Shown in pieces: positions 1,122 through 64,000 of a stretch of 64,000 nucleotides of DNA (position 1 is the stretch's first letter; every line of letters starts with the position of its first letter). The notes below the pieces were generated by a model that saw nothing but the letters and a program-made list of their open reading frames with translations, had not been told where the DNA came from and did not search any database. The stretch comes from an uncultured Thermoleophilia bacterium. GTDB taxonomy: Bacteria; Actinomycetota; Thermoleophilia; UBA2241. The position numbers and the translations under genes are program-made. Location: the NCBI GenBank assembly GCA_964533575.1, contig CAZHMG010000003.1, positions 10,276-74,275 of the forward strand. The letters run 5' to 3'.

Positions 1122-1400
1122 GCACCACTCCTTCTCGACGCTCCTGTGGTCCCGCCTCGGCGAGACCGTGACGAGATGATGTTACCGTAGGGTCAGTGTT
1201 GCTGCACGAGCCCGGAGCCCTCTCGGGCGTGGCGGACGACCTCATCGCGTGTTCTGCCGGCGACGGCCTTGACGGCCGGCCTGGACGGCAATGGAGTGAT
1301 GGAGCTGTGCGGTGTGCAGCCGGGGAAATGCTGGCGTACCGCTGTCGAGACGCTAGAATCAGTCGGGTACGCTCTGGCTCTCGGCTTTGAGGGGACGCCC

Positions 1401-4400
1401 GTGACACGAGAAGAGCTGCAGCCGGGCGTCTCACTGCCGCGGCTCATCTTCCGTCTGCCGCCTGATCCATCCCGGCTGCTGCGCGCACGCGAACGTATGC
1501 GCGACTACCTCCAGCAGTACTGCTCCGACCAGCGTGCCATTGACGATGTGGTTCTCGCCGTGCAGGAAGCCTGCACGAACGCCATCCGTCACAGCGGCTC
1601 GGAGGAGGACATCGAGGTGAACCTCCGTCTCGACGGGGGCGATCTCTTGGCCGAAGTGCGAGACAAGGGACGCGGGTTCGATGCCGGGGACATCGACCTG
1701 GACAAGCCACCCCCTCCGCTTGAGAACTGTGGCCGTGGTCTGTACCTGATGGCGCACCTCATGGATACCCTGACGCTCGACAACAGCGGGGGGCTCCGGG
1801 TGAGCATGACCAAGACCTGCATCCTGGGTCCTCCGTCGCTCCGCCCCTTCATTCCCTCTCTCGAGGGGGGTCTCACGAGTACGACCCGGCAGGCTCCTGA
1901 GGCCTCGCGGGAGGACCGTCTGCACGTGCTGCTCGAGGAGATCAACGAGGCGTTCTTCGCCCTCAACTGGGAGTACCGTGTCGTTCACGTCAATCGCCTC
2001 ACTGCCGAGCTCGCGGGCGAACCGTCGGAGCGGCTGCTGAACCGCGAGATCTCGGAGGCGTTCCCGCTTCTCGGCGACGAGGTGAAGAAGGCCTGCAGGG
2101 ACGCGATGGAGCTGGGCAGGCCCTCCGTGATCGAGCACTACTGCCCTCGGACGCTCCACTGGTTCGAGATCCGCGTCTATCCGACACTGGTCGGCATCAG
2201 TCTCTATCTGCGGGAGATCGACGAGCGCAAGCAGGCGGAGGAACAGCGGCGGCTGGCGGAGGAGAAGCTGCGTCAGCGGACTGAGGATCTGCTCGAGCGC
2301 GTGCGGTTGGACGATATCCTGCTCACGATCGACCAGCTCATCCATTCGACGCTCGAGATCCGCGAGATCATCCATCGCGCCCTCGACGAATCGCTGGCGG
2401 CGCTGCATGCGGACGTCGGCACGGTTGAAGTGCGTGAGGGCGACGAATGGAAGATGCATTATCAGCGAGGGGAAGGGTCGGCAGAGGACGAACGCGCCAG
2501 GCCGGACACGGAGATGCCGGTCGTCGCACGGGCTGCGCGCGCCAAGTCGGCCGTCGCCTTCTCGGACCTTCTCGACGATCCGGCCACGGCCGAGTTCGCC
2601 CGCGACCACAACGTGCGCAGCTGTCTGGCGGCGCCACTGATCATGCGCGAGGCGGTCGCCGGCTTCCTGATCATCTGGTGTCGCCGCCCGCGTGTCTTCT
2701 CGCCGATTGAGGTCGAGTTCGCGCGCAGGCTGGCTTCCTCGGTCTCCCTCGCCCTCGAGAACTCCCGGCTCTATGAGAGGGAGGCCCGCCTGGCCCAGAT
2801 GCCGGCGACGGATCCCTCGTTTCTCTGGCGCTTCATCTCCGTCTCGCGGAAGCACCCGCTGAAGGTGCTGGGCGTCGCCTCAGTGGTGTTGATCGTGCTG
2901 CTGGGGTCCATCGCCATCTGGGGCGACATGCCGCAGATCTACGGCATACCGGGATCGCTGGTCGCGCTGATCGTGATCATCACGGCCGCGCTGGGCGGCG
3001 GCAGAGCCGGGGTGGCGGCGGCTGTTATCGCGGGCGCCGTCTTCTTCGCGGGTCCGGCTGAGCTGGGGGAGGTAGTCTCGGCGGCGGCAGCACTCTCCGC
3101 CACCGCGCTCTGGGCCGTCACGGCGCTCATCGTCGGGTACTTGACGGACGCGCTGCGCCAGCAGGCTCGGCGCCAGAGGGCGGCCGCGCTCGCGCTGGGC
3201 AAGGCTGCCGCAGTCCGCGACGCCGAGCTCGCCGAGCAGCGCCGGGTCGAGAGTCTTGCCGTTGAGCTCGCCGCCGAGCGCGAGCAACTGCTGACCATGA
3301 TCGAACAGACGGACACCTCCATCGCCATCCTTGACCGTGACTTCGTCTTCCAACTCGTCAACTCGGCGTACGCGCGCAACAACGGCAAGCGCGCCGACGA
3401 GCTCATCGGACAGGACTACTTCGCCGTCTTCGAACGGGACGACTACCGGGAGGTGTTTGAGCGGGCGCGACACTCGGGCGAGCCGAGCGTGGCTCGCGCC
3501 CGCCCGATCCGATTCCAGAACCAGCCGGAGCGCGGCGTCACCTATTGGGATTGGCGGCTGGCGCCGGTCAAGGACGAGGCCGGACGCGTTCGCCGGCTGG
3601 TGGTCTCGGCGGTGGACGTGACCGAACGGGTTCAGTCGGCGCAGCTGAGCGAGACGCTCAATGCGATCAACGCCAGAGTCAGCTCGAGGCTCGACGCTCA
3701 TCACATCCGTGATGCCGTCCTCGAGCTGGCGGGGGCGGCGCTCTCGGCCGACGGAGGTATGGTCGTTGTCAAACGCCGGGGACAGTGGCGCCCCGTCCAG
3801 ATCTGGAAGCTGCCGGCCGAGCTGGAGACAGAGACGTTCACCCCGGACGAGTTCCCGCTGGCCGAGCTGGCGCTGCGCGAGCAGCGGCCGGTCTTCACGG
3901 CCGCCTACGGGGAAGAAGCCCGCATCAACCCCGTGCTGGCCCGGCGGCTGGGCATAGAGGCCCTGGTCGTGATCCCGCTGACGAGCAGCAAGGACATGCT
4001 GGGATGTCTGTACTTCGTGTACAACAGCCGCCGCGAACACAGCAGCGTCGAGATCGACTTCGCGCGGAAAGTCGGTGCAGTCATCTCGCAGGCGCTTGTC
4101 AACGCTCGTCTCCTCGACGACGTGCAGCGGGTGGCGACGACCCTGCAGGAGAATTTGATCCACCCGCTCAAAGCGTTCTACGGCCTCGAGCTCGGGCGTG
4201 TGTCACAGACGGCTTACCAGCCGGAGCTCGTGGGCGGCGACTTCAGTCATGTGTTTCGAGTCGACGAGAACCGGGTCGGCGTCCTGATCGGCGATGTGGA
4301 GGGCAAGGGTATTCTCGCCGCCGGGCTGACCGAGACGGTACGGAGCGCGCTTTCGGCATTCGCCTTGGTGAATCCCGCGCCGGAGTTCGTTCTTGAGAAG

Positions 4401-4835
4401 ACGAACGAGCTGCTGCTCGAGGGAGCCCCGACCGATCAGTTCGTCACCGCGTGCTACCTGCTCATTGATCTCCCATCGGGCGCGATCGCGTACGCGATCG
4501 CGGGCCACCCCGCGCCCGTCCTCCTGCGATCCGCGTCGTGCACGAGACTGGACACCGAACACGGGCTGCCGCTGGGCGTGTTTCCGGGAACGTACACCGC
4601 GGGACGCGCGCGCCTCGTGTACGGGGACACGATCATCCTCTTCACGGACGGTCTCACCGAGACGCGGCGCAAGAAGGAGTTCTTCGGCGAACAGCGCGTG
4701 ATCTCGACCGTGTGCGGGCTCGGCGGCCTCGGGGCCCAAGCCGTCGCCGAGCAGCTGAGGCAAGCGGCCATCGAGTTCGCGAACGAATTGCGCGACGACC
4801 TGCAGATCCTGACCGTGAGGTACACGCGTCGGTAG
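1401..4835 (+). CDS. Multidomain signalling protein: N-terminal RsbW-like anti-sigma Ser kinase domain (HATPase_c_2), PAS, GAF, hydrophobic segment, PAS, GAF and C-terminal PP2C (SpoIIE-type) phosphatase
   Basis: ORF 1269..4835. The start is placed at GTG 1401, which has GAGGGGA 5 nt upstream and gives the same N-terminal spacing (12 aa before PRLIFRLPPDP) as the paralog at 17905. The N-terminus has DDVVLAVQEACTNAIRHSG...GRGFD...GRGLYLM (HATPase). A hydrophobic block (LGVASVVLIVLLGSIAIWG...ALIVIITAALGGG...AVFFAGPA...ALWAVTALIVGYL) sits mid-protein. The C-terminus has VGGDFSHVF...GDVEGKGILAAGLTETVRSA...FTDGLTETRR (PP2C). Confidence 0.85.
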   Translation: MTREELQPGVSLPRLIFRLPPDPSRLLRARERMRDYLQQYCSDQRAIDDVVLAVQEACTNAIRHSGSEEDIEVNLRLDGGDLLAEVRDKGRGFDAGDIDLDKPPPPLENCGRGLYLMAHLMDTLTLDNSGGLRVSMTKTCILGPPSLRPFIPSLEGGLTSTTRQAPEASREDRLHVLLEEINEAFFALNWEYRVVHVNRLTAELAGEPSERLLNREISEAFPLLGDEVKKACRDAMELGRPSVIEHYCPRTLHWFEIRVYPTLVGISLYLREIDERKQAEEQRRLAEEKLRQRTEDLLERVRLDDILLTIDQLIHSTLEIREIIHRALDESLAALHADVGTVEVREGDEWKMHYQRGEGSAEDERARPDTEMPVVARAARAKSAVAFSDLLDDPATAEFARDHNVRSCLAAPLIMREAVAGFLIIWCRRPRVFSPIEVEFARRLASSVSLALENSRLYEREARLAQMPATDPSFLWRFISVSRKHPLKVLGVASVVLIVLLGSIAIWGDMPQIYGIPGSLVALIVIITAALGGGRAGVAAAVIAGAVFFAGPAELGEVVSAAAALSATALWAVTALIVGYLTDALRQQARRQRAAALALGKAAAVRDAELAEQRRVESLAVELAAEREQLLTMIEQTDTSIAILDRDFVFQLVNSAYARNNGKRADELIGQDYFAVFERDDYREVFERARHSGEPSVARARPIRFQNQPERGVTYWDWRLAPVKDEAGRVRRLVVSAVDVTERVQSAQLSETLNAINARVSSRLDAHHIRDAVLELAGAALSADGGMVVVKRRGQWRPVQIWKLPAELETETFTPDEFPLAELALREQRPVFTAAYGEEARINPVLARRLGIEALVVIPLTSSKDMLGCLYFVYNSRREHSSVEIDFARKVGAVISQALVNARLLDDVQRVATTLQENLIHPLKAFYGLELGRVSQTAYQPELVGGDFSHVFRVDENRVGVLIGDVEGKGILAAGLTETVRSALSAFALVNPAPEFVLEKTNELLLEGAPTDQFVTACYLLIDLPSGAIAYAIAGHPAPVLLRSASCTRLDTEHGLPLGVFPGTYTAGRARLVYGDTIILFTDGLTETRRKKEFFGEQRVISTVCGLGGLGAQAVAEQLRQAAIEFANELRDDLQILTVRYTRR

Positions 4836-11349: not shown

Positions 11350-11554
11350 GCGCGACCCCGCTGCCGGAGTGGGCGGCCTACGCGCTGCTGGCCGCGATGG
11401 GGGCCGCCACGATCGGCCTGGTCGTCCTCATCCGCAGGATCAGGGGCAGATCGAATGACGTGAGGTTGTGGCCGCGAGGCAGGCCTCCTCGCCGCCTCCC
11501 TCCATTCTGAACCGATCCGGCAGGAACGCGAGCACGCGAGAAAGAGAGGCCGCC

Positions 11555-13510: not shown

Positions 13511-14170
13511 TCGTGCTCGCCTGATCGCCGGCGCCGAAACCGTTGTCGAGACTGACGACAGAGAAGCCGGGCGAGCAGGAGTTCATCATCGGGAGCAGCG
13601 CCGCGATGCCGCCGACGTTGGCCCCATAGCCGATACTGGTGGGCACCGCGATGACCGGGCATGAGACGAGTCCGCCGACGACGCTGGCCAACACTCCCTC
13701 CATGCCGGCGAACGCGACGATGGCGTTGGCTCGTTCCAGCGTCTCGCGCTTATCGAGGAGACGATGAATGCCGGCGACGCCGACATCGCGTTCGACCGCA
13801 CTGCCGGCGCACTCCGCCGTGAGCGCCGCCTCCTCGGCCACCGGGATGTCAGATGTGCCCGCGCTACAGACGCAGACGCAGCCCTCGAGCGGGATCTCGA
13901 CAGGGTTCACGACGGCAAGCCTGACGGCCTCATGGATCGGGCGGGGACGTGCTCGGCCAGCGCCGCCAGTACGTCCGGCGTCGCCCGGGTGGCGAGGACG
14001 TTCGTGTGGCCGTGGTCCACCATGCGCTGCGCGATCGCCACGACCTGCGCCGTGCTCTCGCCGGCGCAGAAGATGGCCTCGGCGTGGCCGCGTCGCAGGC
14101 GTCTTCGAGCTCCAGATCATCGTTGCGCACGGCGAGCAGCAGCTTGCGCAGTTCTTCTCGCTTTATGACA
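13485..14170 (-). pseudogene. larB: larB homologue (nickel-pincer cofactor biosynthesis, PurE-like) disrupted by at least two frameshifts
   Basis: Three minus-strand frames each carry consecutive LarB segments. The N-terminal ...[18 protein letters not shown] is in one frame. [52 protein letters not shown] follows in a second frame and ends in a stop. [35 protein letters not shown]...[64 protein letters not shown] is in the third (ORF 13485..14120). No larC or larE is nearby. Confidence 0.6.
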
Positions 14171-16609: not shown

Positions 16610-17800
16610 TCAGGAGGACGGCGACAGCAGGCCGTTGCCCACCGCGACGACGAGCCCTGCCGCGATGCCGCAGCGCCGGCTCACCGAGGTGAGATCGATG
16701 CGCTCATCCGGCGAGTGATCGTCGGCGCCGACCGGTCCAAGACCGTCGAGCGTGGGAATGCCCTCTGCCGCCGTCCAGCAGCCGTCGCTCATGCCGCCTG
16801 AAGTCTCGCCTTTGAGCGGGCGTCCCAAGGCGGCGGCGAGGGCGATGGCGGCATCCACAAGGCGGCCGCCCGCAGGCGACGGCTCGATGCCGGGCCACCG
16901 CCCATCCTGCGCGAGCTCGATTCGCAGGCCGTCGTAGCCGGCGAAACGGCCCATCTGCTCGAGCGCCCAGCGCACGTCTTCGCCCAGTCGGGCCCGCACG
17001 TCCAGCACAGCTTCGGCTTTGCCGGGGACGACGTTCGGTATTGTTCCCGCCGTCAATCGCGTGAGTGTGACGGTGAGTCCGGGGCGTCCGCCGCTCAGGG
17101 CCGCGCAACGCAGCGCCTCGCGGCAGAGCGCGAGCGCCGCGTTCCGGCCGCGTTCCGGCTCGGTGCCGGCGTGAGCCGCCCTGCCATGTACGCTGAGCCG
17201 GACCCAGGCCCCCGTCTTGCGCCCGTCGACGATGTTGCCGTTCTCGCGGCCGCACTCGAAGACCAGCGCGGCGTCGGCGCCGCGTACGAGATCCATGGTC
17301 GCAAACGGCGCTTTGCGCACCTCCTCGTCCGGCACGCTGTGGAGCTCGACGGCGGGCAGGGGCACGTCAGCGGCGAGCAGCGCTTCCATGACGGCCAGCG
17401 CCACGAGCAGGCCGCCTTTCATGTCGGCCGTCCCCGGGCCGCGAGCGATGTCGTGATGGACCGTCAACGGTCGTTCGCTCGCTGTGCCATGCGCATACAC
17501 GGTGTCGTGATGTCCGAGCAGGACCACGCGCGAGGGCAGACGGCCGGGGAGAGCAGCGCGGAGGAACAGGCCGGGGGGGCGGTCGAGAAGCTCGACCGCC
17601 AAGCCGGCTGCGCGCCCCCATGCGGCCAGCAGCAGAGCCGCCCTGTCCCGACCGGCCCGGTCGTCGGGACCGCTGTCGATTGCCGTCAGCTGGCGCAAGC
17701 GCTCGATGTAGCCCGGCAAGCGGCCTTCGCAGTGCCGCTGGGCGAACTCGGCCGCGGCAGAGGCCGCTTCCATTGCGCCGGCATCAGGTCTGGGGTTCAT
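16610..17800 (-). CDS. M20 family metallopeptidase (ArgE/DapE/CPG2-like)
   Basis: LLGHHDTV...ADMKGGL...HSVPDEE metal-binding motifs and an M20 dimerisation region are present. The start is uncertain (MNPRPD or the downstream MEAAS). Confidence 0.8.
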   Translation of the reverse strand: MNPRPDAGAMEAASAAAEFAQRHCEGRLPGYIERLRQLTAIDSGPDDRAGRDRAALLLAAWGRAAGLAVELLDRPPGLFLRAALPGRLPSRVVLLGHHDTVYAHGTASERPLTVHHDIARGPGTADMKGGLLVALAVMEALLAADVPLPAVELHSVPDEEVRKAPFATMDLVRGADAALVFECGRENGNIVDGRKTGAWVRLSVHGRAAHAGTEPERGRNAALALCREALRCAALSGGRPGLTVTLTRLTAGTIPNVVPGKAEAVLDVRARLGEDVRWALEQMGRFAGYDGLRIELAQDGRWPGIEPSPAGGRLVDAAIALAAALGRPLKGETSGGMSDGCWTAAEGIPTLDGLGPVGADDHSPDERIDLTSVSRRCGIAAGLVVAVGNGLLSPSS

Positions 17801-17904
17801 GAGGCCGCGGACCCTACCGAGCACAGAAGCCCGTGTCAACGGCCATGTACCGGCGTCCGGACCCTGTTCTATACTCGGTCTTCGTCCTTCGCGATTGTTG
17901 GAGC

Positions 17905-20900
17905 ATGGTGAGTCAGACAGACGTCGGCGAGGCTGGGTCCGTTCCGCGGCTCGAGTTCAGTCTCCCATATGATCCTGCCCGCCTCCTGCGCGCTCGGGTG
18001 CGCTTGCGTGAGTACCTGAGCCATCTGACGACCGAGGAGCACACGGTCGACGAGGTCATTCTCGCGATCATGGAGGCGGCGACCAACGCTCTTCGCCACA
18101 GCGGCGGATCAGGGTCGTTCGACATCAGGCTGTCCGTCGAGGACGACGAGCTGGTGGCCGTCGTTCGGGACGACGGCCAAGGATTCGATCCCTCTGGATT
18201 CCACAGGGACGAAACGCCCGATCCGCTGAGCATCGGCGGGCGGGGCCTCTTCCTCATGACCAGGCTCATGGACGCGGTGGACTTCAGTTTCGACGGAGGG
18301 TGTCAGGTGCTGATGCGCAAGCGCCTGGCCCTGGCCCCGGGATTCACGCCGCTCGGCTTCGCCCGCGCGGCCTCGCCCGAGCGCATGCACGACGGCCTCA
18401 ACGAGCGCCTCATCGAGATGCTGGAAGACGGCGACGAGGCCTTCACCGCCCTCGACTGGGAGTTCCGTTACCTGTACGTCAATCGCGCTTCAGAGCGCCT
18501 GGCGAGGCACTCCCGCCAGGAGGTCATCGGCCGCTGTGTCTTCGACGTCTTTCCGACCATGAAGGAAAGCGTGTACGAGCGCAACTACCGGCTGGCCATG
18601 GAGGAGGGTGTCGTCGCCTATTTCGAGGCGCGGTTCGAGCCGTACGGCGCATGGGACGAGCTGCGCGTCTACCCCGCGCCCTTCGGCATCGCCATCTACT
18701 TCCGTGACATCACGGAGCGCAAGCGGGTGGAGGCCGAGCATCGCGAGCTGCTGAGCGCCGTCGAGCGGCAGCGGGCGCAACTGGGAGCCGTCCTCGAGCA
18801 CCTCAACGAGGGCGTTGTGGTCGTCGATGCCGAGGCCAAGGTGCTCCAGGCGAACGCCGCCGCGCGGCGTATGGGAGGCTTCGACCGGGAGCGCGTCAGC
18901 CGCGTGCCGGACATGTGGTCCGAGTTCGAGTTGCTGACGCTGTCTGGACGGCGCCTCGCGGCGCACGAGCTACCGGGGGAGCGCGTCGCCCGCGGCGAAC
19001 GGTTCTCCGGCCTCGAGCTCACGGTCCGCAATCAGGAGAGTGGACGAGAGTTGCTGGTCAGCTTCGACGGCGTGCCCGTCCGGGACGAGCAGGGCCAGGT
19101 GGCGCTGGGCCTGCTCGCGATTCACGACATCAGCGACCGGAAGCGGGAGGAGGCGCGCGAAGCCCTGCACGGCGCGGTGGTGCGCGGCGTCACGGAGATC
19201 CTTGAGGCCGCGCTCGCCTGTACCGACGAGGAAGCGCTTGGTCGCGTGTGCCTCCGGGTCGCCGAGGGGGTGACGCAGAGCGAGTTCGGCTTCATCGACG
19301 AGATCGTCGAGGGCGACAGGCTGGCCGGCATCGCCATGAGCGACGCGGGGTATGGGGCCTGTTCGGTCGGCGAGCATCCCGGCTTCGTCGAGGGCAAAGC
19401 GAGCGACAAGGCGGCGCTGATACGCGGGCTGCACGGCGAGGTCGTTCGCTGTGGCGAGGCCTTCTACACGAACGATCCGGCGACCCACCCGGCGAGCGAA
19501 GGTCTGCCCGCGGGTCACGTCCCGTTGCACGCTTTCCTGGGTGCGCCCCTCAAGCGCGGTGCCGAGACCATCGGTGTCGTCGCGGTAGGCAATCGCGCCG
19601 GCGGATACGGCGACGATCAGCGCTGGGCGCTGGAGAGCCTTGCCTCCGTGATCGTTCAGGCGATCGATCGCCTGCGGGCACGCGCAGCCCTGCAGGAGTC
19701 CCTGGCGAGAACCCGGGTGCTGGCCAGGATCGCGGCAGCCGCGGCGGGGGCCGACAGTGCAGAACAGGTGTCGGAGGCCGTCCTGGTCGCCGCCGCCCTG
19801 CATCTCGGGCTCAAGGCGGGCAGCGTCAATTGTCTTGACGAGGTGCACGGAGAACTGCAGCGCTGCGCCACGTTCGGCGCCGCCTATGGCGATGATCCGT
19901 CCCTTCGCCTCGCCATCCCCATGGACGACACGTTCAACGTCGGCCGGATGCTGAGCGGGGGGCTGCCGTACATGACTCATGAGAGTCCCGGCCAGTCAGA
20001 GGCCAGTCGAGCGCGTTTCGCAGGGATGGGGTTCGCGGGCGACAGCTGGGTCAAGGTGCCGATCAAGACGAGCGAGAGAGTCCTCGGCGCGATGACCCTC
20101 GTGTTTCCGGGCAAGCGCGCCTTTCATCGGGACGACATCGCCTTCTACGGCGCCGTCGCTGACCAACTCGGCGTCGCGCTGCAACGCGCGCGGCTGGCTG
20201 ACGAACGCGAGACGCAGCGTCGCCTGCTCCAGCGGACGGCGCACCTCAGCCTCACTCTCGACGTGGTGAACGATGCCGTTCGGGGCGTCGTTGAGCCGCT
20301 CTCCGCCTTGGCGCAGGGCGCCCACCTGGCGGCAGCGGCGCTCGGCGCCCGGCTGTCTTCGCTCCACCTCCTCAGCGACGGCACGTGGCAGGAGCTCCGC
20401 AGAGAGAACGACGCCATCCTCTCTCGCCCTTGCGCCGCGGAGGAGGTGCCGTTGGGCGACCTGGTGCGAGAGGTCATGCGCCCTGTGGCATTCTGTCGCT
20501 TACCCGGCGCAGCCGCCCTTCTGAGTGAAGGCGCCCCACGCAGCGAATGCCTGCTCGGCGCGCCGCTTGCCAGCGGCGGTGAGATGCTCGGCGCGGTCTT
20601 CTTCGCCTCAGAGGAGGCGAGGGAGTACACGCAGGCCGAGCTCGACTTCGCACGCAAGGTCGGCGTGGCGCTCGGAGGCGCTCTCCAGAACAGGCAGCTG
20701 TATGTGGCGCTGAACGAGCAACTCGAGCTTTCGCACCTGCTTCTGCGGGCCTCCAAGGTTCTCACGCAGTGGACCGACCTCGCAGCCATGCTCGAGCGCC
20801 TGACCGACGTTCTGCTGCTCTCTGCCCCCGGTTCGCGCGTCGGTGTCGTCCTGGTCCATCCAGAGCGACATCACGCGGAGCTGGCCGCCTCCAAGGGCAT

Positions 20901-22950
20901 CGCTCCCCTCGAGAAGGGCGAGTACCTGCCGGAGGTGCTGCTCGCCGGCAGGGGAGACCTGATCCGTGCGCCGCGCACCGTCGTGGCTGAGTACGATGGT
21001 GACCTGGGGATGTCACGGGCGAAGACAGGCTTCCCGCGTCACAGACTCTTTGTGCCGGTGATGTCACGCGGCCGTCTCATGGGCTTTCTGACCGTCGAGG
21101 CTCCGGAGTCGCGGCAGGGGTTCACCCCCGGTGAGGTGAGGACGGTGGAGGCGATTGCCGACCAGGCCGCCACCGCCATCGAGAACGCACGGCTGTACGA
21201 CGCGGAGGTCGAGGCTCAGCGCCGCGCCGCGCGCGAGCTGGAGACGTCCCAACTGCTCCTCACGACCGCTTCCGCCTTCAGCTCGGAGACGGATCCCAGG
21301 CAACTCCTCAATGTGGTCACCGAAACGCTGATGCGTCGTTTCGACGAGGCCCGCGTGTCGATCACGTTGCGTCATGACGACGTGGAGACGATTGTCGCCA
21401 CCTCCGGCGGCCACGCCTACCCTGTCGGGACCGTCTTCAGGCGCGAGGAGTACTCCAAGCCGGCCCTCGAGGCCATGGAGACGGGCCGCGCCGTCGCAAT
21501 CGACTATGAGGTGCTGCCTCCCGAGGAGCGCGGTACGTCCTGCCAGTACGGCATGTGCAACAGCATTGTCGCTCCGCTCGTCACCCGCGGCCGGACCATC
21601 GGCATCCTGGTCATCGACCAAGCCAACGCTCGCACCGTCTTCACGGAGCGGGATGTGCGTCTTGCCCAGGCCATCGCCGACCAGGCCGCCGTCGCGATCG
21701 ACAACGCCATGATGCTCGACAAGGAGCGCGAGGACGCGCGCTTCGGCGAAGCGCTCGACGAGGCGGGGAAGCTGCTGCACTCTTCGCTGGACGACGACAC
21801 CATTCTGGCCGGCGCGCTGCAGTCCGGGGCACGCGCGCTGCTCGCCATCTCCGGCGTGATCGCAGTCATCGAGCGGGGAAGATGGGTCGCGAAGTGCCAG
21901 GTCGGCTTCTCGCCGGATGTTGTCGGACGCTCGTGGCCTGATGAAACGGTGCCGTTCATGGCGCAGGTTCGGCGACAGCGTGGACCGGCGATCATGAGGG
22001 ACGCGCAGGGCGGCGATAGACATCTGGCCGGGAGCGCGACCCCGCCGTCTGTCGGCTCTACGCTGGCGATTCCGCTGACGGTCGGGGAGGAGGTCGTCGG
22101 CGTGCTCGTCTACAACAAGGCCGAGATCGATGCGTTCTCGGAGGCGGAAGTGACGTTTGCCGGCAGGCTCGCGCGCTCCGTTTCGCTCGCCCTGCAGAAC
22201 GCGCGGCTCTTTGCGAACGAGCACACCATCGCCGAGACGCTGCAGGAGGCGCTGCTCGCCATGCCGGAAGCGGTGCCCGGCTTCACCATCGCCCACACGT
22301 ACCACTCCGCAACAGTGGCGGCTCGGGTGGGCGGTGACTTCTACGACGTCTTCGAGATCGCCGACGACGTCGTCGGCGTCGTCGTGGGCGACATCTCAGG
22401 CAAGGGTCTTGACGCAGCCGTGTTCACCTCAGTGGTCAAGAACGCGATCCGGGCCCAGGCCATGGACGAGGGCAAGTCGCCGGCAGACGTGCTGCGCGTC
22501 GTCAACGAGGTCCTGCTGCGCAGTTCGGCGCCGGAGATCTTCGCTTCCGTCTTCTTCGCGATCATCGAGAACGGGCACGTCGTGTACTGCAATGCAGGCC
22601 ACACGCCGGCACTGCTCCTGCATCACGACCTCAGTCTCGAGTGGTTGCCGCATACATCGCCCGTGGTGGGCGCCTTCCCGGACATGCCCTTTGTTTGCGC
22701 GGAGGCCCGTATCGAGCCCGGCGAGCTGCTCTTCCTCTACACAGACGGGCTCGTCGAGGCGCGCGTGGACGGCGTCCTCTTCGGCGAACACGGGCTCCTC
22801 GCACTGTTCGCCGAGCCGGGGATGAATGACGCCGCCTCGGCGGTGAATCGTGTGTCCGCCGCCGTGGTCGAGTTCGCCGAAGGCCGGCTGTCGGACGACC
22901 TCGCCCTGCTCGCCATCACGCCGGACGGCGCCTCCGGGTTCACGCGTTAG
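17905..22950 (+). CDS. Giant multidomain signalling protein (~1680 aa): N-terminal RsbW-like HATPase_c_2 kinase domain, two PAS, at least four GAF domains, C-terminal PP2C (SpoIIE-type) phosphatase
   Basis: It is a paralog of the 1401..4835 gene (PRLEFSLPYDPARLLRARVRLREYL vs PRLIFRLPPDPSRLLRARERMRDYL). HATPase motifs are EVILAIMEAATNALRHSG...GQGFD...GRGLFLM. The PAS domain contains DWEFRYLYVNRASERLARHSRQEVIGRCVFDVFP. Repeated GAF-like blocks each end ...ALQNARL(Y/F). The C-terminus is VGGDFYDVFEIADDVVGVVVGDISGKGLDAAVFTSVVKNAIRA...YTDGLVEAR. Confidence 0.85.
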   Translation: MVSQTDVGEAGSVPRLEFSLPYDPARLLRARVRLREYLSHLTTEEHTVDEVILAIMEAATNALRHSGGSGSFDIRLSVEDDELVAVVRDDGQGFDPSGFHRDETPDPLSIGGRGLFLMTRLMDAVDFSFDGGCQVLMRKRLALAPGFTPLGFARAASPERMHDGLNERLIEMLEDGDEAFTALDWEFRYLYVNRASERLARHSRQEVIGRCVFDVFPTMKESVYERNYRLAMEEGVVAYFEARFEPYGAWDELRVYPAPFGIAIYFRDITERKRVEAEHRELLSAVERQRAQLGAVLEHLNEGVVVVDAEAKVLQANAAARRMGGFDRERVSRVPDMWSEFELLTLSGRRLAAHELPGERVARGERFSGLELTVRNQESGRELLVSFDGVPVRDEQGQVALGLLAIHDISDRKREEAREALHGAVVRGVTEILEAALACTDEEALGRVCLRVAEGVTQSEFGFIDEIVEGDRLAGIAMSDAGYGACSVGEHPGFVEGKASDKAALIRGLHGEVVRCGEAFYTNDPATHPASEGLPAGHVPLHAFLGAPLKRGAETIGVVAVGNRAGGYGDDQRWALESLASVIVQAIDRLRARAALQESLARTRVLARIAAAAAGADSAEQVSEAVLVAAALHLGLKAGSVNCLDEVHGELQRCATFGAAYGDDPSLRLAIPMDDTFNVGRMLSGGLPYMTHESPGQSEASRARFAGMGFAGDSWVKVPIKTSERVLGAMTLVFPGKRAFHRDDIAFYGAVADQLGVALQRARLADERETQRRLLQRTAHLSLTLDVVNDAVRGVVEPLSALAQGAHLAAAALGARLSSLHLLSDGTWQELRRENDAILSRPCAAEEVPLGDLVREVMRPVAFCRLPGAAALLSEGAPRSECLLGAPLASGGEMLGAVFFASEEAREYTQAELDFARKVGVALGGALQNRQLYVALNEQLELSHLLLRASKVLTQWTDLAAMLERLTDVLLLSAPGSRVGVVLVHPERHHAELAASKGIAPLEKGEYLPEVLLAGRGDLIRAPRTVVAEYDGDLGMSRAKTGFPRHRLFVPVMSRGRLMGFLTVEAPESRQGFTPGEVRTVEAIADQAATAIENARLYDAEVEAQRRAARELETSQLLLTTASAFSSETDPRQLLNVVTETLMRRFDEARVSITLRHDDVETIVATSGGHAYPVGTVFRREEYSKPALEAMETGRAVAIDYEVLPPEERGTSCQYGMCNSIVAPLVTRGRTIGILVIDQANARTVFTERDVRLAQAIADQAAVAIDNAMMLDKEREDARFGEALDEAGKLLHSSLDDDTILAGALQSGARALLAISGVIAVIERGRWVAKCQVGFSPDVVGRSWPDETVPFMAQVRRQRGPAIMRDAQGGDRHLAGSATPPSVGSTLAIPLTVGEEVVGVLVYNKAEIDAFSEAEVTFAGRLARSVSLALQNARLFANEHTIAETLQEALLAMPEAVPGFTIAHTYHSATVAARVGGDFYDVFEIADDVVGVVVGDISGKGLDAAVFTSVVKNAIRAQAMDEGKSPADVLRVVNEVLLRSSAPEIFASVFFAIIENGHVVYCNAGHTPALLLHHDLSLEWLPHTSPVVGAFPDMPFVCAEARIEPGELLFLYTDGLVEARVDGVLFGEHGLLALFAEPGMNDAASAVNRVSAAVVEFAEGRLSDDLALLAITPDGASGFTR

Positions 22951-23142
22951 CCGGGGCTGGCTGCGCCGCACCGGCTGCCTCTCCCTTCCGCCGCCCTTCC
23001 CGCCTCGTTCTGATTTCCGCCGGGGCAACGGCGCAAAGGGGGAGGAGTATCGCCAGACTCTGCCGAAAAACGCTCACATCGCACGATGCCGGCGCCGATG
23101 GTGCCCCGGCAGGCTATGGAGCGTTTGACGGAGGCGCACGAC

Positions 23143-23544
23143 ATGAGAACCGGTATGCTGACCACTCGCAAGCTGCGCAGCACCAGTGATCTGCAGAGCC
23201 TGCGCGAGTGGTTGCGGGGTGAGCTCGCCTCGTACGCCGACAGAGCATTGGTGGCTGACGTGGTCGTGGCCACCCAGGAGGCGGTGACCAACTCACTCCG
23301 CTCTCACGGCGAAGGCACGCGCCCCGTCAAAGTGAGACTCACTGTCGATGATGACTACCTTTGGGTGGAGGTCGAGGACTGTGGTTCCGGCTTCCTGAGG
23401 GTCGAGACATGGTGCCAGCGGCCGTCTTCCGATGCCGTCCACGGACGCGGGCTTTATCTCATGCGGACCCTCATGGATGTCCTTGAGATCTCCTCTTACC
23501 CGGCGGGGTCACGCGTTCGCATGGGGAAGCGCCTCGTCGCCTGA
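23143..23544 (+). CDS. Anti-sigma regulatory factor (RsbW/SpoIIAB-like Ser/Thr kinase, HATPase_c_2), stand-alone
   Basis: MRTGMLTTRKL...ADVVVATQEAVTNSLRSHGEG...VEVEDCGSGF...HGRGLYLMRTLMD. GGAGG lies 8 nt before ATG 23143. The in-frame 23086 start is less likely. Confidence 0.8.
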   Translation: MRTGMLTTRKLRSTSDLQSLREWLRGELASYADRALVADVVVATQEAVTNSLRSHGEGTRPVKVRLTVDDDYLWVEVEDCGSGFLRVETWCQRPSSDAVHGRGLYLMRTLMDVLEISSYPAGSRVRMGKRLVA

Positions 23545-23718
23545 CGTCGTCCCCCGGCGCACGCATCTGACACGCGCCCGTTCACCGCGATTCCAGCCGG
23601 CTGTGGCCGTCAACGCCGCGGTCGGGTACCATCAGGACCATCTCACGCCGCCTCGATGCGTGAGCCGTGCGCTTGCGGGTAACACTGCTCGTACTGAGGC
23701 CGAAGGAGGGAGAGCGGT

Positions 23719-24546
23719 GTGAGCGTCGGATACGTTGAAGTCGGCGGCGGCAGACTCTGGTATGAGGAGGCCGGCGAAGGGCCATCCATCGTCCTTCTCC
23801 ACGCGGAAGCCGCCGATTGCCGCATGTGGGACGCGCAGTGGGACGTCTTTCGCGAGCACTTCCATGTCATCCGCCTGGATCTCCCTGGCTCCGGTCACTC
23901 TCCATACCCCGACCAGCCGTGGCGTGAGACCGAGTTGCTCGAGGGCCTGCTCGACACGCTGGGCGTGAAGCAGGCCGCGGTGATCGGGGCAGGCCTTGGC
24001 GGGGCGCTCGCGACCGACTTCGCCATCGAGCGCCCCGAGCGCGTGTGGGCCCTGGTCGCGGCGTCGGTATCGCCTTATGGGCAGGACGGCAACTACGCCG
24101 ATCTGCGCGCCGCGGAAGTGCTCACTTTGCTTGTGGCCGGAAGACCCGGGCGCGCGGCCGATCTGTACCTCGACGTCTGGTGCCCGTTGCGAACGTCATC
24201 CGAGCTCGACGCGCGTATCCAAGGGATGGTGCACGAGAACATCGCCATGCTCACTCAGATTCCGAACGGTCGCATGCAGCTGACGCAGCACTGGGCGGGA
24301 GATCGGGCCCGTGAGATCCAAGCCCCGGCTCTGGTGATCTGGGGTGACAAGGACGCCAAGTCGGCGCAGGCGGCCGCCCAGCGCCTGGCGACCACGATCC
24401 GGCACGCTGTGGCCATGGTGCTCCCCGGGGTCGACCATTTCGTCGCGATGCGAGCGCCGCAGCTGTTCACCGGCGAGGTCATGAGCTTCCTCAACCACGC
24501 CGTGGCCGAGGGAGCGGAGGCAGGTGTGGCGGGCGAGGGCCGTTGA
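23719..24546 (+). CDS. Alpha/beta hydrolase fold protein
   Basis: GGGRLWYEEAGEGPSIVLLHAEAADCRMWD... followed by IGAGLGGALA (nucleophile elbow). GGAGGGAGAG SD precedes GTG 23719. Confidence 0.85.
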   Translation: MSVGYVEVGGGRLWYEEAGEGPSIVLLHAEAADCRMWDAQWDVFREHFHVIRLDLPGSGHSPYPDQPWRETELLEGLLDTLGVKQAAVIGAGLGGALATDFAIERPERVWALVAASVSPYGQDGNYADLRAAEVLTLLVAGRPGRAADLYLDVWCPLRTSSELDARIQGMVHENIAMLTQIPNGRMQLTQHWAGDRAREIQAPALVIWGDKDAKSAQAAAQRLATTIRHAVAMVLPGVDHFVAMRAPQLFTGEVMSFLNHAVAEGAEAGVAGEGR

Positions 24547-27890: not shown

Positions 27891-28736
27891 TCAGCGGGAG
27901 GCATGGCGCTCCGCCATGTCGCCGGCGGCCTCGCCTTGCGTCTGCTGACGTTCGACACTCGCCTTGAGGAGGGTCATGATGTCGACGACCTCGGCCTCCT
28001 GCTCCTCGGCGACGCGGGCGGGCTCCAGCACCTCGTGCTCCTGCCCCGCCTCGACCTTGCGCTTTACGAGGTCCAGCACTTCGTCGCGGTACTGGTCGCG
28101 GTACTGCTCCGGTTGCCACGTCTCGACCATGGCCGAGACCAGCTGCTCGGCGAGGGCGACCTCGCGGTCCTTGACGCCGAGGGCCTCGAGATCCTCATCG
28201 GGAATCTCGAGCTCGGCGGTCCCGCGCAGCTCATGCGCGTAGCGCAGCTGCTCGAGCACCAGCACGGTACCGACGGGGAGCACGGCGGCGAGGTACTCCT
28301 TGGTGCGCATGACGATCTTGGCGATAGCCACATGGCGGCTGCGGCGGAGCGCCTCGCGCAGGAGGGCGTACCCCTTTTGGCCCCCCTGTGTGGGGACGAC
28401 GTAGTAGGGCCGGTCGAAGTAGCGAGGATCTATCTCGTCGGTGGAGACGAACGCCTGGATGTCGATCGTGTGGGTGGCCTTGGGATCGACGGCGTCGAGC
28501 TCCTCCTCGCTGACCACCACATACCGGTCTGGCGCGTACTCGTAGCCCTTGATGACGTCGCCCCACTCCACCTCTCGCCCGGTCTGTTCGTTGATGCGGT
28601 GCTCCCGTACGGGGGTGAGCGTCGAACGGTCGAGCTGACGAAAACGCAGCGCATCGCGGCTCTCGGCCGCGTAGAGCGCTACCGGCACGTTGACGAGCCC
28701 GAAGCTTATGGCGCCTTTCCAGATCGGACGAGGCAT
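27891..28736 (-). CDS. ku: Ku protein (non-homologous end joining DNA-binding protein)
   Basis: MPRPIWKGAISFGLVNVPVALYAAESRDALRFRQL...YFDRPYYVVP... is the canonical bacterial Ku core with an acidic/basic C-terminal tail. The start is at ATG complement 28734-28736 inside the longer ORF 27891..29162. Confidence 0.9.
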   Translation of the reverse strand: MPRPIWKGAISFGLVNVPVALYAAESRDALRFRQLDRSTLTPVREHRINEQTGREVEWGDVIKGYEYAPDRYVVVSEEELDAVDPKATHTIDIQAFVSTDEIDPRYFDRPYYVVPTQGGQKGYALLREALRRSRHVAIAKIVMRTKEYLAAVLPVGTVLVLEQLRYAHELRGTAELEIPDEDLEALGVKDREVALAEQLVSAMVETWQPEQYRDQYRDEVLDLVKRKVEAGQEHEVLEPARVAEEQEAEVVDIMTLLKASVERQQTQGEAAGDMAERHASR

Positions 28737-28890
28737 TCGTGGGCCTTTCGTTGCGTCAGCGATGGTGCCTGTGACACACAGGCTTCCCGCCCGCAGGATG
28801 GGACAAACGGGACGCGAACGAGGACACTCGCGGCTGAGGCCGAGCGGGGCGGGAGACTCAGCCTGGCCGCGGGGCGGCCCGGCTCGCGCA

Positions 28891-29268
28891 CTACTTGTGC
28901 AGCTCGTCGTGCACGTGGTCGAGGAACGCTTGGCCGGCGCGCTCGCTGAGGAGACCAGCCACCTGCTCGGTGGCGCCGCGATCCTCAAAGGATGGAAGAC
29001 GCAGCGGGGCGCTTCTGAAGCCGCCCCGTTCGCGCACCACGCCGAGGTCGGAATGTCCGAGATCGCCCAAGGCGGCAACGGCGTCGAGCATGAGCGTTCG
29101 CTCGCGCTGGCCGTCACCCGCGTCGCGCGTCTCCATGCACATGAGGTACACGACCTGGTCATGCAGCAGGTAGGCGGGCTTGCCGGTCAGCAGTCGCCGC
29201 AGCGCTGCTGCCGGGACGTTGTCCACGGCCCGCTCCTGCGGATAGTCGAGAAGCTGCCACTTGCCCAT
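28891..29268 (-). CDS. Hypothetical protein (125 aa) between hemerythrin and Ku
   Basis: MGKWQLLDYPQERAVDNVPAAALRRLL... AGGAGG lies 6 nt upstream of the ATG. No family recognised. Confidence 0.5.
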   Translation of the reverse strand: MGKWQLLDYPQERAVDNVPAAALRRLLTGKPAYLLHDQVVYLMCMETRDAGDGQRERTLMLDAVAALGDLGHSDLGVVRERGGFRSAPLRLPSFEDRGATEQVAGLLSERAGQAFLDHVHDELHK

Positions 29269-31573: not shown

Positions 31574-32686
<1,113 letters not shown>

Positions 32687-52681: not shown

Positions 52682-52725
52682 CGGCTCTCGTCACCCACCG
52701 CCGCTGCTACCCTCTGTGGACCGGC

Positions 52726-62743: not shown

Positions 62744-64000
62744 CTACTTCAGGCGGAGCACCAGCACCTCGAGGTCGTCGCGCAGCGTCCCGCAGAATGC
62801 CTGCGCGGCGTCTCGCACGCCTTGGGCCACCTGGTCTGCCGGCCGCTCCGCAAGGGTACGCAGGCTCGAGAGCAACCCGCTCTCGCCGAAGAGCCGGGTG
62901 CCGCAGCGCGCCTCGGTGACGCCGTCCGTGTACAGCACGAGTGCGTCATCCCGGTCCAAGGTGAAACGGAACGCCCGGTAGTCGCCGGGCAAGCCTCCCA
63001 GCGGCAGGCCGTACTCGGGGTTGATGGTGGTCACGGAGCCGGCGTGGATGTGAGCTGGCCCGGGATGCCCCGCGCTGGCCATGGTCACCTCGCCGTTCGT
63101 GCAATCGATGACGAGCACGAGCGCCGTCACGAGCAGGTCCTCCTCCACATGGCGCGCAATGAGGAGCTCGTTCGTCTCGTGCAGGATGAAGGCGGGCTCG
63201 GGCTCGACGTGCGCGAAAGCGCGCAGGGTGCTGCGCACGGTCTCCGTCATGCCGGCGGCCGGGATTCCCTTGCCCGCGACATCACCGACGATCGCGACGA
63301 CGCGCTGTCCCGGCAGTTCGAAGAGATCCCAGAAATCGCCGCCGATGAGGCCGGGCTCCGAGGCGGGCGCCTCGACGAGGCCCACCTCGAGATCCGAGAG
63401 TTCGGGCAACTCGTGCAGGAAGCTCTGCTGCAGCGTCGTCGCGATTCGTTTCTCTGACTCGTACAGGGTCCGCAACTCCTCCTGGGCCCGTCGGCGCTCG
63501 GTGACGTCCTGCGACAGACCGATGAGACGGACCGGTGCGCCTTGAGCATCGTGCTCCACGCGACCGCGCTCGGAGAGCCAGCCTGTGTCTCCGTCCTCGC
63601 GCACGATGCGAAACTCGCTTTCGTAGAGGCCATCCCCGCGCTCGAGGGCCGCCCGGACATTCCCGAGGAAGAGCCCTCGGTCGTCCGGATGCACGTGCTC
63701 CAGGACAGACTCGAGCGTGACGGGGTGGTCTGATGGTGTGACGCCCAATGACGGCTCGGAAGAGACGAACCTGCGCACCTCGTTCCGTTGGACATCCCAT
63801 TCGAAAGAGATCAGGTATGCGGACTCGAGCGCGAGGCGCAGGCGCAGCTCGTTCTGCCGGAGCCTCTCTTCACTCCCCTTGAGCGCCTCCTCGGTGCTGC
63901 GGCGCTCCGTCATGTCGGTCACGGCGCCGCGCATCACGCGGTCCGCCTTGCCGGCGTCGAGGGAGTTGACGCTCTCCAGCCAGCGCACGCTCCCGTCGCG
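62744..64000 (-). CDS. PAS domain-containing PP2C (SpoIIE-type) Ser/Thr phosphatase, RsbU/RsbP-like (partial: N-terminus beyond right edge)
   Basis: The C-terminus IGGDFWDLFELPGQRVVAIVGDVAGKGIPAAGMTETVRS...YTDGVTEAR...LRLK is PP2C. PAS/PAC sequence (SFEWDVQRNEVRRFVS..., ...REDGDTGWLSERGRVEHDAQGAPVRLIGLSQDVTERRRAQEEL) lies upstream. The ORF is still open at the window end. Confidence 0.8.
   Translation of the reverse strand, partial: RDGSVRWLESVNSLDAGKADRVMRGAVTDMTERRSTEEALKGSEERLRQNELRLRLALESAYLISFEWDVQRNEVRRFVSSEPSLGVTPSDHPVTLESVLEHVHPDDRGLFLGNVRAALERGDGLYESEFRIVREDGDTGWLSERGRVEHDAQGAPVRLIGLSQDVTERRRAQEELRTLYESEKRIATTLQQSFLHELPELSDLEVGLVEAPASEPGLIGGDFWDLFELPGQRVVAIVGDVAGKGIPAAGMTETVRSTLRAFAHVEPEPAFILHETNELLIARHVEEDLLVTALVLVIDCTNGEVTMASAGHPGPAHIHAGSVTTINPEYGLPLGGLPGDYRAFRFTLDRDDALVLYTDGVTEARCGTRLFGESGLLSSLRTLAERPADQVAQGVRDAAQAFCGTLRDDLEVLVLRLK

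Follow-up and report, generated by a model that had tools for sequence, protein, structure and literature searches.

Architecture of the locus

The window, the whole 64-kb stretch of DNA analysed here, comes from a soil-type actinobacterium (Thermoleophilia) and carries a gene for a giant regulator that unites in one chain a kinase of the anti-sigma type, eight sensor modules and a phosphatase, with a small kinase-like gene downstream of it. The features of this pair are as follows.

17905..22950, + strand: giant regulator gene, 1681 aa, cytoplasmic, with an RsbW-like kinase, two PAS, six GAF and a PP2C domain
17950..18321, + strand: HATPase_c_2 (RsbW/SpoIIAB-type) module at the giant N-terminus (local profile E 7e-34)
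18433..19137, + strand: two PAS domains of the giant (Pfam PAS_4 in two stretches, E 6e-25, with PAS and PAS_9; NCBIfam sensory_box in two stretches)
19222..22194, + strand: six GAF modules of the giant (Pfam GAF_2 in six stretches, E 4e-73)
22141..22254, + strand: long single helix running from the last GAF to the PP2C domain, a predicted signalling linker (AlphaFold2 model)
22336..22926, + strand: C-terminal SpoIIE/PP2C (PPM) serine phosphatase domain of the giant (Pfam SpoIIE, PF07228, 140.2 bits)
23063..23105, + strand: partly conserved intergenic block GCTCAC, N17-19, CGAT(A/G) (alignment of six orthologous upstream regions)
23143..23544, + strand: stand-alone RsbW-like ATP-binding protein gene, 133 aa (NCBI-called P0121)

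The longest open reading frame for the giant spans 17833-22950, and Pfam residue positions given here refer to it, while the NCBI-called product (P0001, 100% identity) starts at 17905 and has 1681 aa, one residue more than the 1680 aa of an earlier note on this DNA. No TM-like segments were found in the protein. Pfam placed HATPase_c_2 (PF13581) at aa 45-163 with 74.1 bits against a cut-off of 27.4, PAS_4/PAS domains at aa 201-298 and 318-435, and SpoIIE at aa 1511-1696 with 140.2 bits against a cut-off of 25. The kinase-sensor-phosphatase architecture proposed in the earlier note was thus confirmed by scores far above the cut-offs at both ends of the protein. A local GAF profile located sensor modules at aa ~440-587, ~620-759, ~790-927, 958-1092, 1130-1265 and 1292-1430, each closed by an A(L/I)(Q/E/D)NARL-like helix, and gave six matches at corresponding positions in the orthologues P0002, P0003 and P0005; the GAF-like blocks with ALQNARL-type endings described earlier were therefore seen, while their number, put at "at least four", is six. 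A reading of the giant as a two-component histidine kinase was rejected, as there was no HisKA or HisKA_3 match and the ATPase module, a HATPase_c_2 domain, stands at the N-terminus.

The closest solved structure to the N-terminal module was Bacillus subtilis RsbW (6M36, E 5e-11, aligned end to end), and alignment to segments of 6M36 and of SpoIIAB (1TIL) revealed that the N-box E-x3-N, the G1 motif DxGxG and the G2 motif GGRGL (G-x-G-L) were retained in all 11 clade sequences. At the other end of the protein, the motifs GGDFYD, GDISGKG, TDGLVE and SDD were found, and the metal-binding Asp motifs GGD, GDxxGxG, TDG and DD occurred in each of the three PP2C proteins of the window. Residues G197, G198, D199, G216, D217, G220, G222, D335, G336, D385 and D386 were invariant in 18 PP2C homologues. 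The catalytic motifs of kinases and phosphatase at the locus are all intact.

Sequence comparison gave Rv1364c (3KE6, E 8e-16) as the best solved relative of the phosphatase. An AlphaFold2 model of aa 1280-1681 of the giant (mean pLDDT 88.1) contained an unbroken helix (H134-171, 38 residues) leading from GAF6 into the PP2C domain, and the top Foldseek matches of the modelled region were the RssB PP2C, Rv1364c (ranks 2-3), SpoIIE and SiaA, with E 1e-13 to the RssB PP2C, Rv1364c and SpoIIE. As modelled, the phosphatase is a predicted PPM fold with a regulatory helix entering from the sensor domain. Control of PPM phosphatases by dimeric helical linkers has been described, with OsaC and Rv1364c among the examples (PMC12143880).

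The small gene at 23143..23544, listed earlier as a stand-alone RsbW-type kinase, was verified by Pfam (HATPase_c_2, 67.0 bits against a cut-off of 27.4, E 2e-18). Its orthogroup comprised about 30 clusters at 43-74% identity, with 64 invariant columns that include the N-box, G1 and G2 motifs, and a metagenome scan with the alignment returned two short loci only. It does not follow the giant "directly", as had been stated, since a 192-nt gap separates the two, and the gap measured 124-192 nt in all orthologues. The conserved block at 23063..23105 may be a candidate promoter of the small gene itself. A consensus sigma-70 promoter and terminator scan of 17400-24000 found no promoter-like site, that block included, and a single terminator-like site, which falls within the giant gene and is fewer than chance would give; by eye, the alignment upstream of the small gene showed no SigB/F-type promoter of the form GTTT-N-GGGTA.

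Kinases, phosphatases and partner genes in the window

Unfiltered local profiles run over all six-frame open reading frames returned precisely three RsbW-like and three PP2C domains, in agreement with both counts given earlier. The two large fused genes (1269-4835 and 17905-22950) hold one of each, the third RsbW-like domain belongs to the small gene, and the third PP2C domain to the gene at 62744-64000 on the minus strand. The genes beyond the pair that enter this census, together with the only sigma factor gene, are these.

1269..4835, + strand: paralogous fused protein of up to 1188 aa, with an RsbW-like domain, PAS, GAF, 3-4 membrane segments, PAS, GAF and PP2C (Pfam)
31574..32686, + strand: principal sigma factor RpoD, the sole sigma gene of the window (Pfam regions 1.1, 1.2, 2, 3 and 4)
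62744..64000, - strand: third PP2C protein, PAS-PP2C (Pfam PAS_3 and SpoIIE, 144.8 bits), its N-terminus cut by the window edge

The first of these proteins matched HATPase_c_2 at 80.9 bits and SpoIIE at 143.8 bits, and its TM-like segments (aa 528-626) overlie a weak DUF4118 match. It shares 39% identity with the giant over the kinase and PAS region and 29% over the GAF and PP2C region, in line with the paralogy proposed before. For the right-edge protein, the PAS and PP2C domains named earlier were recovered, although its complete architecture was not, the reading frame being open to base 64000; on a Logan contig it extends to at least 440 aa, still incomplete, and its homologues carry REC, PAS or HATPase_c_2 N-termini.

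Pfam found no STAS domain in 132 small and 50 larger open reading frames of the window. A STAS profile of 33 sequences, run with --max on every window open reading frame of at least 50 aa, had a best E of 0.36 and thus found no STAS protein; it was built mainly from 29 STAS open reading frames of the loci compared, plus SpoIIAA, RsbV, BldG and RsfB seeds, which were accepted because SpoIIAA, BldG and RsfB matched the C-terminus of P0029, where precomputed PF01740/PF13466 hits lie. Nothing in the 192-nt gap between the giant and small genes matched this profile as a STAS remnant, and no STAS gene was found in 137 kb of clade loci. The absence of a STAS gene from the 64-kb window, noted earlier with the caveat that one might have been missed, therefore stood in any frame.

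The product of 31574-32686 scored 366.8 against the NCBIfam RpoD_Cterm cut-off of 354 and 144 against the SigB/F/G cut-off of 234, and its cluster members are named RpoD [Thermoleophilia bacterium]. The window accordingly has no group-3 sigma, as had been said, and neither the window nor the clade loci yielded an alternative sigma factor. With neither a STAS gene nor a SigB/F/G-type sigma gene beside a kinase, the window lacks a canonical partner-switching operon. The RsbW-like modules scored 22.7-51.2 bits against the NCBIfam equivalog cut-offs of NF003144, TIGR01924 and TIGR01925 (135-155), so they are generic family members, not RsbW or SpoIIAB orthologues; with scores so far under the cut-offs, partner specificity is not readable from sequence.

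Because rpoD lies 8 kb downstream in conserved synteny, we considered whether the RsbW-like modules might control the principal sigma factor itself. The window and four further loci (L001, L084, L091 and L092) share the synteny of rpoD and the small RsbW gene, and an Rsb network of Chlamydia reportedly acts on the primary sigma factor. However, 5-7 unrelated genes on both strands lie between the two, and there is therefore no operon link; L082 has no rpoD within 8 kb, and synteny of a housekeeping gene is expected from vertical descent. We regard control of RpoD as very improbable.

Conservation of the neighbourhood and the likely wiring

Orthologues of the giant with 53-66% identity were found in syntenic loci (L001, L082, L083 and L084), its relatives among species-representative genomes reached at most 43% identity, and the giant and small genes together form a neighbourhood conserved in a Thermoleophilia clade. 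The architecture itself is common. PF13581 and PF07228 occurred together in about 30 of the best 120 giant homologues, named Streptomyces and Actinoplanes proteins among them, and such fusions, widespread in Actinomycetota, are named "SpoIIE family protein phosphatase" by NCBI. Across 27 loci we counted 29 open reading frames with an N-terminal kinase and a C-terminal PP2C domain, and a STAS gene lay within 10 kb in three loci and in none of the other 24; most of the fused homologues from cultured actinomycetes among these loci were 740-850 aa long.

In near-full-length distant homologues (aligned to query residues 23-1671, 44-1671 and 55-1671), by contrast with the window, STAS genes were present on the flanks. 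The gene order was STAS, kinase, sensor-PP2C, STAS, kinase in L013 and L020; STAS, kinase, one in-frame stop, sensor-PP2C, kinase in L028; and STAS followed by a fused kinase-sensor-PP2C gene in L036 and L029. P0029 holds kinase, PP2C and STAS domains in one chain. Since STAS genes persist on one or both flanks of the distant full-length homologues, the wiring was canonical in the ancestor. The loci form a series that starts with split genes between two STAS genes, continues with fusions that have an upstream STAS gene and ends with fusions lacking any STAS gene nearby, and this series is a plausible route by which the fusions arose.

These patterns bear on a circuit that would work without any STAS protein, in which the RsbW-like modules act on each other. 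The small RsbW, a member of a family (RsbW/SpoIIAB) that functions in dimeric form, would form mixed dimers with the N-terminal module of either or both fused proteins and so titrate or activate them, and the PP2C domain would take phosphate off a kinase module or the sensor protein instead of off a STAS protein. Apart from its orthologues, the small RsbW is closest to the N-terminal modules of fused proteins (50-52 bits and, for the giant module, 43% identity over 100 aa; stand-alone kinases from other loci reached at most 36 bits). Where gene order has been rearranged, it is still found no more than two genes from a fused kinase-PP2C gene, lying directly downstream, divergent or across sepF. 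The lack of STAS genes in the window and in the clade DNA is also consistent with such a circuit, and there is a partial precedent in Mycobacterium smegmatis, where RsbW3 antagonises RsbW1 by direct interaction, with a heterodimer proposed (PMC7693655, PMC10950880). However, the genes for a Germane-domain protein, SepF, a hydrolase, Ku and RpoD are as syntenic as the small RsbW gene, indicating that the proximity may be inherited gene order and not a functional link. Moreover, L083 has a giant orthologue without the small gene, L094 has a distant small-RsbW orthologue without a fused neighbour, and homologous systems elsewhere retain STAS genes. We consider this circuit unlikely. A stronger version, in which the clade has lost its STAS antagonists and the fused proteins and the small RsbW regulate one another by mixed dimers, trans phosphorylation and PP2C reversal, thereby controlling a sigma factor, perhaps even RpoD, we consider decidedly unlikely.

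A further possibility is that the kinase and phosphatase act on a STAS protein encoded elsewhere whose target is not a sigma factor but, for instance, an enzyme, a transporter or a second-messenger pathway. Such an output would fit the lack of an alternative sigma gene in the window and clade loci and a small-RsbW orthologue with a GAF-GGDEF gene two ORFs downstream (L089), and sigma-independent partner-switch outputs, including SypE/SypA, have been discussed outside Bacillus (PMC12344097, PMC10120452). On the other hand, the genes around the locus (M20 peptidase, SepF, hydrolases, a transketolase-like protein and Ku) point to no specific alternative output, and OsaC, the nearest protein of this architecture to have been characterised, acts on SigB (PMC10117811). 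We judge a non-sigma output unlikely.

The reading that we find probable, with some reserve, is that the locus encodes an OsaC-type multi-sensor partner-switching regulator and a lineage-specific RsbW paralogue, and that the genes for the STAS and sigma partners lie at other places in the genome. Under this OsaC-type reading, the N-terminal module of the giant would bind an alternative sigma factor, phosphorylate a STAS-type antagonist, or do both, as RsbW does and as the OsaC kinase domain does with SigB, while the C-terminal PP2C, predicted to be Mn/Mg-dependent, would take the phosphate off the STAS-type antagonist. The PAS/GAF array would read ligand or redox signals and shift the balance of kinase and phosphatase through the helical linker, and the small RsbW would serve as a second kinase or anti-sigma unit sharing the same partner pool. 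The STAS and sigma partners, whose existence in the genome we assume, would be encoded elsewhere, as is usual for the fused architecture and for actinobacterial partner-switching networks. In Streptomyces coelicolor, 45 RsbW, 17 RsbV and 44 PP2C homologues have been counted, the partner-switching genes of actinobacteria being scattered and unequal in number (PMC8346170). Of the two alternatives raised in the earlier note, substrates encoded elsewhere is thus the better, compared with fused proteins acting on each other.

The giant is a well-preserved and very sensor-rich member of a poorly studied class that places a partner-switch kinase and phosphatase in one protein; to our knowledge, OsaC is the only member of this class studied experimentally. 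The series from split to fused genes also offers a small set of natural variants for asking whether fused proteins still need a STAS partner. The locus alone overturns nothing, and it would be of much greater interest if the clade genomes lacked STAS proteins.

Comparison with known partner-switching systems

The RsbU-RsbV-RsbW system of the B. subtilis sigB operon and its actinobacterial counterparts involve the identical three domain families, and the order sensor-PP2C, STAS, kinase is kept in distant homologues (L010, L013, L018, L020, L032 and L035). The window differs in that it lacks a STAS gene, has one kinase as part of the phosphatase protein and shows no sigB-type gene after it.

Rv1364c (MursiF) of M. 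tuberculosis likewise combines a PAS sensor, an RsbU-type PP2C and an RsbW-type kinase in one protein, but its domain order is PAS, PP2C, kinase, STAS (PMC10950880), whereas the giant has an N-terminal kinase, a C-terminal PP2C and no STAS domain. A reading of the giant as an Rv1364c/MursiF-type protein was rejected on domain order and the missing STAS domain, and among the loci compared the Rv1364c-like order occurred in L055 only.

As in M. smegmatis, there are several RsbW paralogues in one organism, and those of M. smegmatis (RsbW1, RsbW2 and RsbW3) share out the roles of anti-sigma factor, STAS kinase and antagonist that interacts directly with another RsbW (PMC7693655). All three are stand-alone proteins encoded beside sigF or STAS genes, whereas in the window two of the three RsbW-like modules form part of sensor phosphatases, with no STAS or sigF gene near.

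The closest likeness is to OsaC (SCO5747) of S. coelicolor, which has an N-terminal RsbW-like kinase, PAS/GAF sensors and a C-terminal PPM/PP2C domain (PMC10117811, PMC12143880), and which resets the SigB regulon, binding SigB by way of its kinase domain (PMC10117811, PMC8346170). Both proteins carry RsbW-like, PAS, GAF and PP2C domains in this order in one chain and have an actinobacterial host, and an adjacent STAS gene is absent from the window as it is, as a rule, for the architecture. The giant differs in its eight sensor modules (two PAS and six GAF), its length of 1681 aa and the small RsbW paralogue alongside, and the genes around it include no histidine kinase or response regulator and thus no two-component pair of the osaA/osaB type. 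Among named Streptomyces proteins with this domain architecture, the nearest, P0052, shares 32% identity over 17% of the query. This low similarity to P0052 argues against orthology with SCO5747, and the giant is probably an analogue of OsaC in architecture, or a distant homologue at most. The earlier suggestion of a non-canonical, possibly undescribed wiring is not sustained in view of the OsaC precedent, the common architecture, the 24 of 27 loci without STAS and the STAS-flanked distant homologues. Because the fused design is known from Streptomyces OsaC, a missing nearby partner gene is normal, and the locus is a fairly ordinary one of its kind.

Domain architecture of the fused protein and its neighbour

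A single long ORF, in frame with high third-position G+C, spans 17833-22950 (+) of the window (67% G+C) and encodes a giant fusion of an RsbW-like kinase, sensor modules and a PP2C phosphatase, followed by a small stand-alone RsbW-like gene.

Features of the giant and the small RsbW (Pfam positions numbered along the longest ORF, 17833-22950)
NCBI-called start 17905, +, giant gene, 1681 aa (P0001, 100% identity)
aa 45-163, HATPase_c_2 (Pfam, 74 bits, cut-off 27.4)
aa 201-298 and 318-435, two PAS domains (Pfam)
six GAF stretches (Pfam GAF_2, E 4e-73)
aa ~440-587, ~620-759, ~790-927, 958-1092, 1130-1265, 1292-1430, GAF modules (local GAF profile)
aa 1511-1696, SpoIIE/PP2C (Pfam, 140 bits)
23143-23544, +, small RsbW gene, 133 aa (NCBI-called P0121; HATPase_c_2 E 2e-18)

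The earlier note had described a 1680-aa RsbW-PAS2-GAFn-PP2C protein with at least four GAF-like blocks; Pfam bore out this layout, including both the HATPase_c_2 and SpoIIE domains, while the profile count gave six GAF modules and the NCBI-called product is 1681 aa. Orthologues at 53-66% identity carry GAF modules at the same six positions (local GAF profile), which argues that the array is old and not a recent tandem expansion. The giant has no membrane-like segments and is soluble, whereas the first fused paralogue (1269-4835, +) has three to four strongly hydrophobic mid-chain segments (aa ~528-626, over a weak DUF4118 match) and is therefore predicted to be a membrane-embedded kinase-PAS-GAF-TM-PAS-GAF-PP2C protein. 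PF13493 is also listed for homologues P0018, P0029 and P0062.

Over its whole length, the N-terminal module of the giant aligned with the B. subtilis RsbW structure (6M36, E 5e-11) and also with SpoIIAB, and the small RsbW aligned more weakly with solved RsbW (E 2e-3). Alignment with RsbW and SpoIIAB showed that the N-box Glu/Asn, G1 DxGxG and G2 GGRGL motifs are kept in all clade copies, and these motifs are invariant across small RsbW orthologues. The phosphatase retains GGDFYD, GDISGKG, TDGLVE and SDD motifs, whose Asp/Gly residues do not vary across 18 homologues; among proteins of known structure, its nearest relative by sequence is the RsbU domain of the M. tuberculosis multidomain regulator Rv1364c (3KE6, E 8e-16). 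In an AlphaFold2 model covering the phosphatase and the last GAF (mean pLDDT 88), an unbroken 38-residue helix is predicted to lead from GAF to PP2C, with RssB-PP2C, Rv1364c, SpoIIE and SiaA as top Foldseek matches. Such a helical linker has been proposed to carry sensor-domain signals to PPM phosphatases, OsaC (SCO5747 of S. coelicolor) and Rv1364c being among the examples (PMC12143880).

The small RsbW, said in the earlier note to follow the giant directly, is present but separated from it by 192 nt. Its orthogroup is tight (~30 clusters, 43-74% identity), with generic RsbW-like proteins beyond it at E ~1e-17. Its closest non-orthologue relatives are the N-terminal modules of the fused proteins (50-52 bits, 43% identity over 100 aa), and stand-alone kinases of other loci reached at most 36 bits. 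Lying 40-80 nt upstream of its start, a partly conserved block (23063-23105; GCTCAC, 17-19 nt, CGATAC(C)GT-like) recurs in the orthologous loci L001, L082, L084, L089 and L090; the gene may have its own promoter there, and a sigma-70 consensus scan found no fit for the block.

Partner-switching components in the window

Profiles for RsbW-like, PP2C and STAS (anti-sigma factor antagonist) domains, built from the window copies and ORFs of related loci, were run without speed filters on all six-frame ORFs. They recovered exactly three RsbW-like domains (two fused, one free) and exactly three PP2C domains, in agreement with the earlier count. The STAS profile comprised 33 sequences; of the four seeds, three hit a protein for which PF01740/PF13466 matches were already precomputed. 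The profile's best match among these ORFs had E = 0.36, and Pfam scans of 132 small and 50 larger window ORFs found no STAS domain.

31574-32686, sole sigma factor of the window, regions 1.1 to 4
62744-64000, -, third PP2C gene, running off the window edge with its N-terminal part and upstream neighbours outside

The sigma factor scored above the NCBIfam RpoD_Cterm cut-off (366.8 vs 354) and below the SigB/F/G cut-off (144 vs 234), and its 90% cluster contains proteins named RpoD, Thermoleophilia bacterium. The window thus indeed holds neither a STAS gene nor a group-3 sigma factor, as had been claimed, with the caveat that the third PP2C gene is incomplete here. That the RsbW-like modules control this RpoD is very improbable in our judgement. 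At least two PAS-like regions are present in the third PP2C protein, and REC, PAS or HATPase_c_2 domains form the N-termini of its closest homologues (39-51% identity). The protein could represent either a third kinase-phosphatase fusion or a phosphatase of the response-regulator type.

Gene neighbourhoods and the link to STAS genes

Within this Thermoleophilia lineage, the 53-66%-identical orthologues of the giant share a neighbourhood of a Germane-domain gene, sepF, M20 peptidase, giant, small RsbW, hydrolase, ku and rpoD. In L001, L082 and L084 the small RsbW comes next after the giant; it is missing from L083, divergent from a kinase-PAS-PAS-GAF gene in L090, and placed just after sepF in L091, L092, L093 and an 18.5-kb contig. 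A fused kinase-PP2C gene (1322-1338 aa) precedes sepF on the opposite strand in the three complete loci of the latter set, and in L093 the contig ends within it; in L094 a 43%-identical relative of the small RsbW stands alone. No STAS gene was found in 137 kb of DNA from these clade loci.

An additional fused kinase-PAS-GAF-PP2C paralogue (1151-1338 aa) lies between the Germane-domain gene and sepF in L001 (3851-7306, -) and L091/L092 (5266-9234, -). The window has nothing but an F420-type oxidoreductase gene in that interval, so the fused genes differ in number and location among clade members. On the metagenomic contig L089, a GAF-GGDEF diguanylate cyclase gene (1174-2310, +) replaces the hydrolase gene two ORFs downstream of the small RsbW orthologue. 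A bacterial type IB topoisomerase with a C-terminal hemerythrin (HHE) domain (29366-31186, -) adjoins the Ku gene (27891-29162, -) in the window and is absent at the corresponding position in L001 and L084. At 35793-39823 (+), a trehalose-phosphatase/HAD fusion and, after it, a GH65 glycoside phosphorylase, both syntenic in L091 and L092, probably form a trehalose or compatible-solute pathway, which could matter should the regulators, like OsaC, react to osmotic stress. The regions 6715-8477 and 50345-52726 hold long ORFs without Pfam match on either strand (6146-7123, 7016-7918, 7642-8298, 51218-52006, 51551-52681).

Distant near-full-length homologues of the giant (query residues 23-1671, 44-1671 and 55-1671; 27-32% identity) form a graded series of gene arrangements.

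Arrangements in related loci
L013, L020: STAS, kinase, sensor-PP2C, STAS, kinase, as separate genes
L028: STAS, kinase, one in-frame stop, sensor-PP2C, kinase
L036, L029: STAS, then fused kinase-sensor-PP2C
L010, L018, L032, L035: sensor-PP2C, STAS, kinase (Bacillus-like order)
Apart from the series, P0029: kinase, PP2C and STAS in a single chain
Apart from the series, L055: domains in Rv1364c order

In L028, an Actinomycetota MAG (8333-14095, +), one stop codon separates an RsbW-like ORF from a 1777-codon sensor-PP2C ORF in the same frame. The stop may mark a true boundary between two genes, reflect a sequencing error, or capture a fusion or fission in progress. The window order, a fused gene and then a kinase, resembles this series after the STAS genes have become unlinked, so that a canonical STAS substrate is the default expectation, without being proof for this genome. 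A STAS-free circuit built on mixed RsbW dimers, for which RsbW1-RsbW3 of M. smegmatis provides a precedent (PMC7693655), appears quite unlikely.

Proposed circuit and known architectures

The fused architecture is not unusual. PF13581 and PF07228 occur together in ~30 of the giant's best 120 homologues, among them NCBI-named 'SpoIIE family protein phosphatase' proteins of Streptomyces, Actinoplanes and Paractinoplanes. Across 85 sequences (84 related loci and the window), 29 ORFs in 27 sequences combine an N-terminal kinase with a C-terminal PP2C, cultured Actinospica and Actinocrinis species being among the carriers, and only 3 of the 27 have STAS within 10 kb. The suggestion of a non-canonical, possibly undescribed wiring is therefore unsupported, because it was based on an absence in one window that is normal for this architecture.

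Domains, motifs, fold, paralogy, synteny and the comparative series are established by the analyses above; as to partners, direction of control and signals, we infer that the locus is probably an OsaC-type regulator with partners encoded elsewhere. The N-terminal module of the giant would bind a sigma factor, phosphorylate a STAS antagonist, or both, and its PP2C domain would undo that phosphorylation, with the eight sensor modules tuning the balance via the helical linker. The small RsbW would be a second kinase or anti-sigma unit of the same network, and the sigma and STAS partners of both proteins would lie elsewhere. A switch with a non-sigma output is an unlikely alternative to this OsaC-type reading.

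The earlier observation thus holds with small corrections, and the locus is a further example of a known architecture; STAS proteins absent genome-wide in the clade, if true, would be the one result able to change this assessment. Partner-switching genes of actinobacteria are numerous and scattered, and their families differ in size: S. coelicolor has 45 RsbW, 17 RsbV and 44 PP2C homologues (PMC8346170). Its OsaC, in which the N-terminal kinase domain binds SigB and is joined to PAS and GAF domains and a PPM phosphatase, is required after osmotic stress for the SigB regulon to come back to its basal level (PMC10117811, PMC8346170, PMC12143880), and the giant has the same reported design of N-terminal kinase, PAS/GAF domains and phosphatase.
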